DNA from: Candidatus Hadarchaeota archaeon
GTDB taxonomy: Archaea; CAYQAE01; CAYVLA01
Assembly: GCA_964621445.1 (NCBI GenBank)
Contig: CAZUNO010000003.1
Span: forward strand, 32,001 to 96,000
DNA: 64,000 nt
Direction: 5' to 3'
The notes under the pieces are model-generated. The model saw only the letters and a list, made by a program, of their open reading frames with translations. It had not been told where the DNA came from and did no database searches. Position numbers and translations under genes: made by a program. Shown here piece by piece: positions 37,861 to 39,624 of the stretch (the first letter of the stretch is position 1; each line of letters begins with the position of its first letter).

Positions 37861-38439
37861 TTGCTTAGCAGATACAGAGATACCATAAACGCCTTTTTCG
37901 AAAAGATCGCCGCACATTTCAAATTTCTTCCACCGAATGCAATAACCGTTTCCAGCCTCCTTTTCTCCTTCGTACCCGCCTATCTCTTCTATCTGGGAAT
38001 GGTCCAGATTGGCTCCATCCTTGTTCTTCTATCCGGAGGATTCGATGTCATGGATGGTGCAGTAGCCCGTTTGACCGACAGGGTAACGTTATTTGGGGGA
38101 TTCCTGGATTCCACATTCGATCGTATGGCGGACTTCATAATCCTGGGCGGAATAGCTTTATCGGGAATCGTGGGCTGGGAATTGGTATTATTCACCGCCT
38201 TCGGCTCTTTCATGGTCCCCTATTGCCGTGCCAGGGGCGAAGCGGCTGGATGTGATAAGATGGCGGTTGGAATTGCCGAAAGAGCGGAACGCCAATTGGT
38301 CCTGGTCGCCGGGGGGCTGATTCACCCGCTAGTTGAAGAGGTGAATATCCTCCAGATATCAGTGGCAATACTGGGCATCCTAGCGTGGATAACCGTTTTC
38401 CAGAGGATAATCGCGGCCAAGAGATGTCTAGAGAAATGA
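37861..38439 (+). CDS. CDP-alcohol phosphatidyltransferase (archaetidylinositol-phosphate synthase-like)
   Basis: PNAIT, DVMDGAVAR..., GGFLDSTFDR, YCRARGE, GIAERAER. Confidence 0.88.
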   Translation: MLSRYRDTINAFFEKIAAHFKFLPPNAITVSSLLFSFVPAYLFYLGMVQIGSILVLLSGGFDVMDGAVARLTDRVTLFGGFLDSTFDRMADFIILGGIALSGIVGWELVLFTAFGSFMVPYCRARGEAAGCDKMAVGIAERAERQLVLVAGGLIHPLVEEVNILQISVAILGILAWITVFQRIIAAKRCLEK

Positions 38440-38455
38440 GGAGGCGAGTTTAGAC

Positions 38456-38604
38456 GAACCGGCAGCGACTCTTGCTTCCCAAAGGGTCTCCCACTTCAGT
38501 ACAACAAGCGACGCTGGCCTGCTTAACTTCCGGGTTCGGATTTCTCCTTCCTTAAATCAGAAGTATGAGACCGGGTGTTGCCAGGCCGCTATGGCCGCCG
38601 GCTC
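38456..38604 (-). rRNA. rrf: 5S rRNA, stand-alone, containing a 24-nt insertion
   Basis: Minus strand GGCGGCCATAGCGGCCTGGCAACACCCGGTCTCAT-[24 nt]-TCCGAACCCGGAAGTTAAGCAGGCCAGCGT...GTACTG...GGGAGACC...GGGAA...TCGCTGCC. Helices I (GAGCCGGCGGC/GCUGCCGGUUC) and II (GGCCUG/CAGGCC) pair. Confidence 0.95.
38541..38564 (-). other. Predicted BHB intron in 5S rRNA loop C
   Basis: Insertion ACUUCUGAUUUAAGGAAGGAGAAA. Central helix UCUC/GAGA, 3-nt bulges AUA and AAU, inner helix CUUCU/GGAAG, outer helix CGG/CCG. Confidence 0.85.
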
Positions 38605-38638
38605 GGTGTCCCTCGCCCCTTCATCTATTTAAGCTAGC

Positions 38639-38646
38639 ATTAAAAA
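38639..38646 (-). promoter_or_regulatory. TATA box of the 5S rRNA gene
   Basis: TTTTTAAT on the minus strand, 19-26 nt upstream of the start of the precursor stem at 38620. Confidence 0.6.
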
Positions 38647-38745
38647 TGTAATTCCAATTCGCATAGATTCGGGGTTATTGATATATCAGTCCTTAGGAAA
38701 AATGAGTAAGACAGATAAATAGAGGTACAAATCACGCGAAACAAG

Positions 38746-39624
38746 ATGGGTAACAAAGACGACCAGGCAATGGATAGTCTCCTTCAGGCACAACAAAACG
38801 AGATCACCGAGTACGAGGTCTACAACCGGATACAGGACCAGATAACTGACGCCCATAACAAGAACGTAGTAAAAAGGATAGCCGATGAGGAGCTATCGCA
38901 TTATCAATTTTTCAAAGAGCACACCGGAAAAGAACTTGAACCATCTAAGTTTCAAATAATGAAGTTCGTTATCCTGTCCAAGATCTTTGGCATAACCTTC
39001 TCGATAAAATTAATGGAAAGAGGGGAAAAGGATGCTCAGGATTTTTATCAAGATCTGATAGATACCGTACCTGAGATCGAGGAGATTTTATCTGATGAAT
39101 ATAGCCATGAAAAGCAGCTCGTTGACCTCCTAGATGAGGAACGTCTCCGGTACACGGGGTCTATTGTCCTCGGTCTTAACGATGCACTGGTTGAACTCAC
39201 GGGAGCGCTTTCGGGTCTCACTCTGGCACTACAGAAGCCAAATCTAGTGGCCGTTACTGGTTTGGTAACCGGGGTTGCAGCGGCACTATCCATGGGGGCT
39301 TCCGAGTATCTATCCACCAAGTCCGTCCCTAACGACACAAAGGACCCCTTTCGAGCCTCGCTTTACACCGGGACTGTCTACATACTAACGGTATTTCTAC
39401 TGGTAGCTCCTTATCTGGCCTTCTCAAACGTATATTATGCCCTTGGCATCACTCTCGTGTGTGCCATCCTGGTTATCCTGATATTTTCCTTTTACATATC
39501 AGTGGCCCAAGATGCCTCCTTCAAAAGGAGATTTGGCGAGATGGCAGGACTAAGTATGGGCGTAGCTGCCCTTTCCTTCATTATAGGTTTCATCATACGG
39601 ACCTTCCTAGGAGTCGATGTGTGA
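38746..39624 (+). CDS. VIT1/CCC1 transporter with N-terminal ferritin/rubrerythrin-like domain
   Basis: QQNEITE..VY, IADEELSH, MERGE, DEYSHE; VLGLNDALVELTGAL, ALSMGASEYLS. Confidence 0.88.
   Translation: MGNKDDQAMDSLLQAQQNEITEYEVYNRIQDQITDAHNKNVVKRIADEELSHYQFFKEHTGKELEPSKFQIMKFVILSKIFGITFSIKLMERGEKDAQDFYQDLIDTVPEIEEILSDEYSHEKQLVDLLDEERLRYTGSIVLGLNDALVELTGALSGLTLALQKPNLVAVTGLVTGVAAALSMGASEYLSTKSVPNDTKDPFRASLYTGTVYILTVFLLVAPYLAFSNVYYALGITLVCAILVILIFSFYISVAQDASFKRRFGEMAGLSMGVAALSFIIGFIIRTFLGVDV

Follow-up and report, generated by a model that had tools for sequence, protein, structure and literature searches.

A conserved bulge-helix-bulge motif around the stand-alone 5S rRNA gene of a Candidatus Hadarchaeota family

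Excision and circularisation at bulge-helix-bulge (BHB) motifs is taken as the hallmark of 16S and 23S rRNA maturation in archaea, from which 5S rRNA is explicitly set apart: in one account, 16S and 23S 'but not 5S rRNAs' undergo excision and circularisation (PMC12918454). The 23S circle made in this way can be the mature ribosomal form (PMC12918454 and PMC7758197), and circular or permuted 23S rRNA in ribosomes, known from several uncultivated phyla and from Pyrococcus and Thermococcus, provides a precedent for 23S only. The maturation of 5S rRNA has been assigned to tRNase Z acting at a tRNA-like element (Haloferax), to FAU-1/RNase W (Pyrococcus, Thermococcus) and to an A/U-motif endonuclease (Methanococcus) (PMC10515664, PMC7714728 and PMC7758197). 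Low-level circular 5S rRNA has been recorded in Sulfolobus solfataricus (123 nt, not validated by RT-PCR) and Halobacterium salinarum, and the source gives the mechanism as not known (PMC3326292). Circular 5S molecules with variable ends have been read as decay products (PMC12558985), and according to a 2026 preprint on Thermococcus barophilus any 5S circles would, should they be confirmed, arise 'in absence of BHB motifs'.

The locus analysed here, in a Candidatus Hadarchaeota genome, resembles the pathway that turns the precursors of 16S and 23S rRNA into circles in that leader and trailer form a stem with two 3-nt bulges 4 bp apart, and the same enzymes are encoded. It differs in that the RNA is 5S rRNA from a stand-alone gene, the inner helix is the mature helix I, and the leader is only about 12-15 nt long and begins at the predicted transcription start. 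With the BHB introns of archaeal tRNAs and of 16S and 23S rRNA it shares the motif and the predicted cut positions, and an inner 24-nt insert is of precisely that kind; around the 5S, by contrast, the excised piece would be the functional RNA and the ligated 'exons' the waste. The proposed product would be covalently closed like the circular 5S of S. solfataricus, S. acidocaldarius, H. salinarum and Pyrococcus abyssi, but the circles of those four species are described as rare, with ends that vary at or inside the mature termini and with no BHB, and are regarded as products of decay or of another ligase (PMC3326292, PMC12558985 and the preprint), whereas here a BHB is present and the predicted junction falls outside helix I. 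As in the known 5S routes, the ends would be formed from a longer precursor, but the signal here is structural and the flanks hold neither a tRNA-like element nor an A/U-rich motif. In a search of the archaeal literature that ran outside subscription journals and supplementary files, we found no report of a 5S intron and none of a BHB around 5S rRNA.

A double bulge-helix-bulge at the 5S locus

In the window, meaning the whole 64,000-nt stretch of DNA that was analysed, the minus strand has a single Rfam match, to 5S rRNA (RF00001); it spans 38602-38457 and scores 90.8 bits (E 3.1e-18). The match covers model positions 1-120, scores above the gathering cut-off of 38 bits and carries an unaligned insert in loop C. 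An Rfam search of the whole genome (3.2 Mb, 89 contigs) found this one 5S gene; the 16S and 23S genes lie together on a different contig. The 5S gene is a solitary unit with a protein gene on either side: a convergent CDP-alcohol phosphatidyltransferase gene on the plus strand, with its stop codon at 38437-38439, and a divergent VIT1/rubrerythrin-like gene that starts at 38746. The elements of the locus, in the direction of 5S transcription, are as follows.

38639..38649, minus strand: conserved promoter element ACATTTTTAAT, a TATA box with upstream ACA; ACATTTT(T)AAT in 9/9 sequences
38616, minus strand: predicted transcription start, the 23rd base after the TATA element, from TATA-to-start spacing
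38612..38619, minus strand: outer helix, leader strand GGGGCGAG, with conserved core GCGAG at 38616-38612; read base by base and in the nine-sequence comparison
38608..38611, minus strand: central 4-bp helix, 5' strand GGAC
38605..38607, minus strand: 5' bulge ACC, predicted cut 38606/38605; a 3-nt bulge (ACC or AAC) in 9/9 sequences
38456..38604, minus strand: 5S rRNA gene (Rfam RF00001) including the 11-bp helix I, GAGCCGGCGGC at 38604-38594 with GCUGCCGGUUC at 38466-38456
38570-38567 with 38546-38543, minus strand: central helix of the mini-intron's inner BHB, UCUC with GAGA
38566-38564 and 38542-38540, minus strand: bulges of the inner BHB, AUA and AAU
38541..38564, minus strand: 24-nt BHB mini-intron in loop C, the unaligned Rfam insert, with conserved pairing
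38452..38455, minus strand: central 4-bp helix, 3' strand GUCU; read base by base and in the nine-sequence comparison
38449..38451, minus strand: 3' bulge AAA, predicted cut 38450/38449; a 3-nt bulge (AAA or AAU) in 9/9 sequences
38441..38448, minus strand: outer helix, trailer strand CUCGCCUC, 1 base from the phosphatidyltransferase stop codon

The strands run outer helix, central helix, bulge and inner helix on the 5' side, and inner helix, central helix, bulge and outer helix on the 3' side, an order around the 5S that we take to be the canonical archaeal bulge-helix-bulge geometry. The outer helix (38619-38612 with 38448-38441) has 8 bp including one G.U pair, and the central helix 4 bp, also with one G.U. 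The ACC and AAA bulges lie on opposite strands and exactly 4 bp apart, as in the canonical hBHBh' form, and helices flank them on both sides, the outer one of 5-10 bp across relatives and the inner one being helix I. The original prediction had proposed an 8-bp outer helix, a GGAC/GUCU central helix and two 3-nt bulges stacked on helix I, and on reading the minus strand we found every element where it had been placed. The canonical BHB rule sets the cut positions inside the two bulges. Cuts after the second base of each bulge would release 38605-38450, a piece 156 nt long that shrinks to 132 nt once the 24-nt inner insert is removed, and both sizes, calculated from the coordinates, agree with those predicted.

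A chance origin is excluded for the motif of this genome. Its two 35-nt flanks were shuffled 5000 times, with the motif required to stack on helix I, and a strict 3-4-3 arrangement (bulge, central helix, bulge) arose in 8/5000 shuffles when the outer helix had to reach 5 bp or more, and in 0/5000 when it had to reach 8 bp or more. The 201-nt fold, at -85.6 kcal/mol, has a z-score of -4.61, and none of 200 shuffles was equally stable. Its minimum-energy structure contains the leader-trailer helix, but with a 6x6 internal loop in place of the 4-bp helix. We do not weigh this loop against the motif, since the energy rises by only 0.9 kcal/mol when the BHB is imposed (-71.5 versus -72.4, and -78.4 versus -79.3); nearest-neighbour energy rules are reluctant to draw bulges, and we read the loop in that light. 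An alternative C-G pair can lengthen helix I, leaving the central helix at 3 bp.

The insert in loop C carries a BHB of its own, in which all 11 pairs are kept in the nine family sequences introduced below (99/99 cells). Its distal loop differs among them in both length and sequence, in keeping with an intron, and without the mini-intron loop C has the canonical length, as judged by eye against the Rfam consensus. The nested arrangement that had been proposed, with one BHB inside another, is thereby upheld; the label of an intron within an intron sounds more exotic than the case is. Ribosomal RNA introns inside BHB-excised pre-16S and pre-23S are already known. The nesting is not new, and what is new is the BHB around the 5S.

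Conservation in the family and the ends of the transcript

The phylum is represented in the genome collection by only five species genomes: four of the family studied here and the single genome of a sister family (G004). The 5S gene is 148-149 nt long in the three other family genomes and 158 nt in G004, where a 36-nt insert with a looser motif occupies the same loop-C site. We compared nine distinct family sequences, four from the species genomes and five metagenome variants. The variants were retrieved with an 18-base pattern from within the gene, at the loop-C insert's 5' edge, so that the flanks played no part; the scan returned 24 loci, comprising 16 unrelated pattern matches and 8 5S genes, from which three duplicates were removed ahead of any count: L038 (the same as G001), L040 (the same as L036) and L055 (with the motif of G002). 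The nine sequences make up about five clades of close kin, with a mean column identity of 90%.

Conservation of the flanking BHB in relatives, which the original prediction had made a touchstone, is borne out. With the motif scanner, seven of the nine sequences show a strict 3-4-3 motif on helix I, and all nine carry it if the definition is slightly relaxed for G003 and G002. In G003 the core is strict, and its outer helix consists of 2 bp, a bulged A and a further 7 bp; G002 has one A.G mismatch, which breaks one central-helix pair. In the ungapped alignment of the nine, helix I is paired in 99/99 cells, the central helix in 35/36 and the inner five outer-helix pairs in 42/45, the three misses being the register shift caused by the bulged A of G003; overall, 91.3% of cells are paired, compared with 34-55% when the partner columns are slid, counts that are to be read as consistency among kin and not as independent proof.

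The outer strands are GCGAG/CUCGC in most sequences, GAAGAG/CUCUUC in G002 and GCUGGCG(A)GG/CCCGCCAGC in G003. They differ between lineages yet stay complementary, and the outer-helix pairs of G002 and G003 are thus compensatory changes. In the central helix the nine sequences have one-sided changes only (G-C/G.U, A-U/G.U) and no double compensatory change. Since G.U pairs occur in it, the structure is specific to RNA of the 5S sense. Judged by this comparison of sequences, the outer BHB is a real feature, conserved with compensatory changes.

Upstream of the leader, the element ACATTTT(T)AAT is the sole part that can be aligned among the nine relatives, the sequence between it and the leader being unalignable; in the source genome the 16S gene has a similar ATATTTTTAAG upstream of it. 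In archaea the start of transcription usually falls about 23 nt past such a TATA element. The base at that position is G in 9/9 sequences, and in 7/9 the outer-helix leader strand begins with it, although the length of that strand varies (5, 6 or 10 nt). In the source genome (G000) and in variant L037 the predicted start lies inside the leader strand, by 3 bases and 1 base respectively, with complementarity running further upstream. Correspondingly, the distance from TATA element to core tracks the length of the leader strand, at 27, 28 or 32 nt. This spacing suggests that the primary transcript opens with the outer helix, and it is the best argument for that placement. The idea that a TATA box would start transcription at the outer helix has therefore gained a conserved element and a predicted start on the helix's first base in most sequences. 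For the outer helix itself, the 8-bp pairing stands, but the helix transcribed from the conserved promoter probably has only 5 bp in most members, and up to 8.

Two further elements occur only in the source genome, in the region of window positions 38621-38632 and 38434-38439. One is an additional 6-bp complementarity, AGAUGA/UCAUUU, beyond the outer helix; it is not conserved and probably lies upstream of the start. The other is a TATA-like TTAAATA at 38632-38626, between the conserved TATA and the leader and upstream of the predicted start. TTAAATA could start transcription at the mature 5' end, bypassing the motif in this genome.

At the other end of the gene, no run of at least five T follows the 5S in any of the nine sequences, so the transcript should read through the trailer strand. 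In the sister-family genome the 3' end of the 5S runs directly into six T, and about 24 nt separate the TATA from the 5S start; the outer motif was not found at this 5S, at which the loop-C insert is present.

Enzymes, other stable RNAs and the 5S genes of other archaea

We examined the source genome for the enzymes and for BHB motifs at its other stable RNAs. EndA is encoded by two genes, identified by domain matches (PF01974, PF02778), of which the larger has an extra Sen54-like N-terminal match.

C2:82920-83723 (L057): EndA, 373 aa, two-unit form
C9:29229-29699 (L058): EndA paralog, 507 aa

Two EndA loci occur in each of the four family genomes and one short locus (a 190-aa open frame) in G004, so that EndA copy number and the outer motif appear correlated, among kin only. 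An RtcB-type ligase is represented by a PF01139 match of 609 bits in a 483-aa open frame. RNase III was considered as an alternative processing enzyme for the leader-trailer stem and rejected, because its domains (PF14622, PF00636) had no match in the source genome, which is 96% complete. Aragorn predicts 26 intron-bearing tRNA genes, about 20 of them with introns of 12-43 nt; six predictions with introns of 246-2214 nt were discounted as implausibly long and probably artefacts. Several of the predicted tRNA introns sit at positions other than the canonical 37/38.

BHB stems flank the 16S and 23S genes as well. Around the 16S, read by eye, a 15-bp helix is followed by UGGC, an AAA bulge, GG opposite CC, GCCA, an AAA bulge and the 15-bp partner strand; the motif scanner misses this BHB, whose inner helix is 2 bp. 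Around the 23S, AGGCCCAGUUC-GGAG-UAA-UCC stands opposite GGG-CUUU-GAC-GAACUGGGCCU. A scan of the flanks of SRP RNA and RNase P RNA in the same genome found no BHB. The 16S-tRNA(Ala-like)-23S operon, with its canonical BHB stems, occupies C17:11560-16849 (L031, L032, L143), and the RNase P RNA gene is convergent to it, about 120 nt past the 23S 3' end and close to the trailer strand of the 23S stem.

To place the motif among archaea we drew on a wide sample of 150 genomes, 144 of them with a 5S match. One locus was taken from each of 80 genomes in listing order, of which 79 were usable (L063 is cut by a contig end), and these together with 25 loci from our first search for relatives, G004 being left out, make up 104 loci from outside the phylum. 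None of the 104 (0/104) has a convincing outer BHB, and among the matches listed a 5S longer than 124 nt occurs only in the five genomes of the source phylum. Two strict hits among the 104 were rejected, their 5' strand being TATA-box sequence with no contact to helix I, as were two trivial hits among the 26 loci of the first search, which lie away from helix I. The sole relaxed hit of the 104, in G083, was also rejected, the motif being absent from three other members of its genus.

In this GC-rich genus (L109, L132, L134 and L137, from G083, G062, G104 and G041) leader and trailer lengthen helix I of a 124-nt 5S by several pairs in some members, for example G104; these four loci share no conserved 3-4-3 motif. 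Five further genomes (G012, G017, G040, G061 and G082) gave only partial or sub-threshold 5S matches, such as one to model positions 17-62 or two adjacent weak ones, and these could hide interrupted 5S genes.

Maturation of the 5S precursor

Taken together with the EndA and RtcB genes, the conserved motif leads us to the following proposal. The stand-alone 5S would be transcribed from its own conserved promoter, starting at about 38616, into a precursor of about 176 nt or more, in which the first 5-8 bases would pair with the trailer so that flanks and helix I build the BHB. EndA would cut both outer bulges, at 38606/38605 and 38450/38449, releasing a 156-nt pre-5S with one extra base at the 5' end and six at the 3' end. 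The inner BHB would be cut likewise, at 38565/38564 and 38541/38540, and loss of the 24-nt intron would leave 132 nt. RtcB would then ligate the loop-C exons and also the two ends of the excised 5S. Both cleavage and circularisation are argued by analogy with pre-16S and pre-23S. On that footing, processing of the 5S precursor by EndA at the outer BHB is the reading we favour and consider likely, and an at least transient 5S circle is a serious prospect that we nonetheless stop short of expecting.

EndA may also cut as proposed and the 5S product stay linear or be trimmed at once, with no circle. Such an outcome is a tenable possibility to which we give only limited credence. BHB-excised RNAs (tRNA introns, pre-16S, pre-23S) are generally found circular, which speaks against a linear product, as do the RtcB gene of this genome and helix I, which keeps the two ends together. 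The literature, for its part, treats 5S as the rRNA without a circular stage (PMC12918454), and the 5S circles that have been reported are rare, variable and thought to be decay products (PMC3326292 and PMC12558985); yet the species in which they were reported have, according to the T. barophilus preprint, no BHB at their 5S.

The leader-trailer helix might instead be a plain stem that protects or helps to process the ends, as an exonuclease roadblock or as a site for tRNase Z, an FAU-1/RNase W-type or an A/U-motif enzyme, its likeness to a BHB being incidental. Archaeal 5S maturation as so far described does use other enzymes (PMC10515664, PMC7714728 and PMC7758197), terminal stems have been proposed as trimming rulers (PMC10515664), and the missing double compensatory change in the central helix fits a stem of this kind. 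A plain stem, however, has no need of two 3-nt bulges on opposite strands, 4 bp apart, kept in 8/9 sequences even as the outer helix takes on another sequence and length; the same geometry flanks the 16S and 23S genes of the source genome, and in the GC-rich flanks of the 5S the signals of the other enzymes, a tRNA-like element or an A/U-rich motif, were not found. We regard the plain stem as improbable.

Least likely is that the 5' strand is untranscribed promoter DNA. On this view transcription would, as in Sulfolobus and the sister family, begin at the mature 5' end, and the complementarity would act at the DNA level or be inherited by chance. The AGAUGA/UCAUUU pairing of the source genome does enter sequence that is not transcribable from the conserved promoter, and BHB-like hits in two control genomes included TATA boxes, but TTAAATA is absent from the other eight sequences, and a constant 22 nt separate the conserved TATA from the helix start while the helix itself varies in length. 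Read from the other strand, or in a DNA cruciform, the G.U pairs would become A.C mismatches, and the compensatory changes point to selection for pairing in RNA.

Within the favoured reading, EndA processing at the outer BHB, a stronger form can be stated, in which the mature ribosomal 5S is itself a covalently closed circle: EndA cuts, RtcB joins, and helix I, capped by the conserved 7-nt loop GUCYAA+C, is never reopened. We think this unlikely, while noting one pattern that it would account for. The central helix and the bulges are near-invariant whereas the outer helix varies freely, and if the circle were permanent this would stem from selection acting on a loop that the mature RNA keeps. 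All three rRNAs would then pass through one EndA/RtcB pathway, with the smallest keeping its circular form.

Against a background of 5S circles that in model species are rare and of mechanism not known, a conserved BHB at the 5S would show that the EndA/RtcB pathway is able to take over all three rRNAs, and that the 3' end of an RNA can be set by splicing enzymes and not by a terminator. The precursor of about 176 nt with its two nested BHBs is a compact substrate for the order and specificity of EndA cuts, and the family offers a natural case for asking if ribosomes are able to function with 5S rRNA in circular form.
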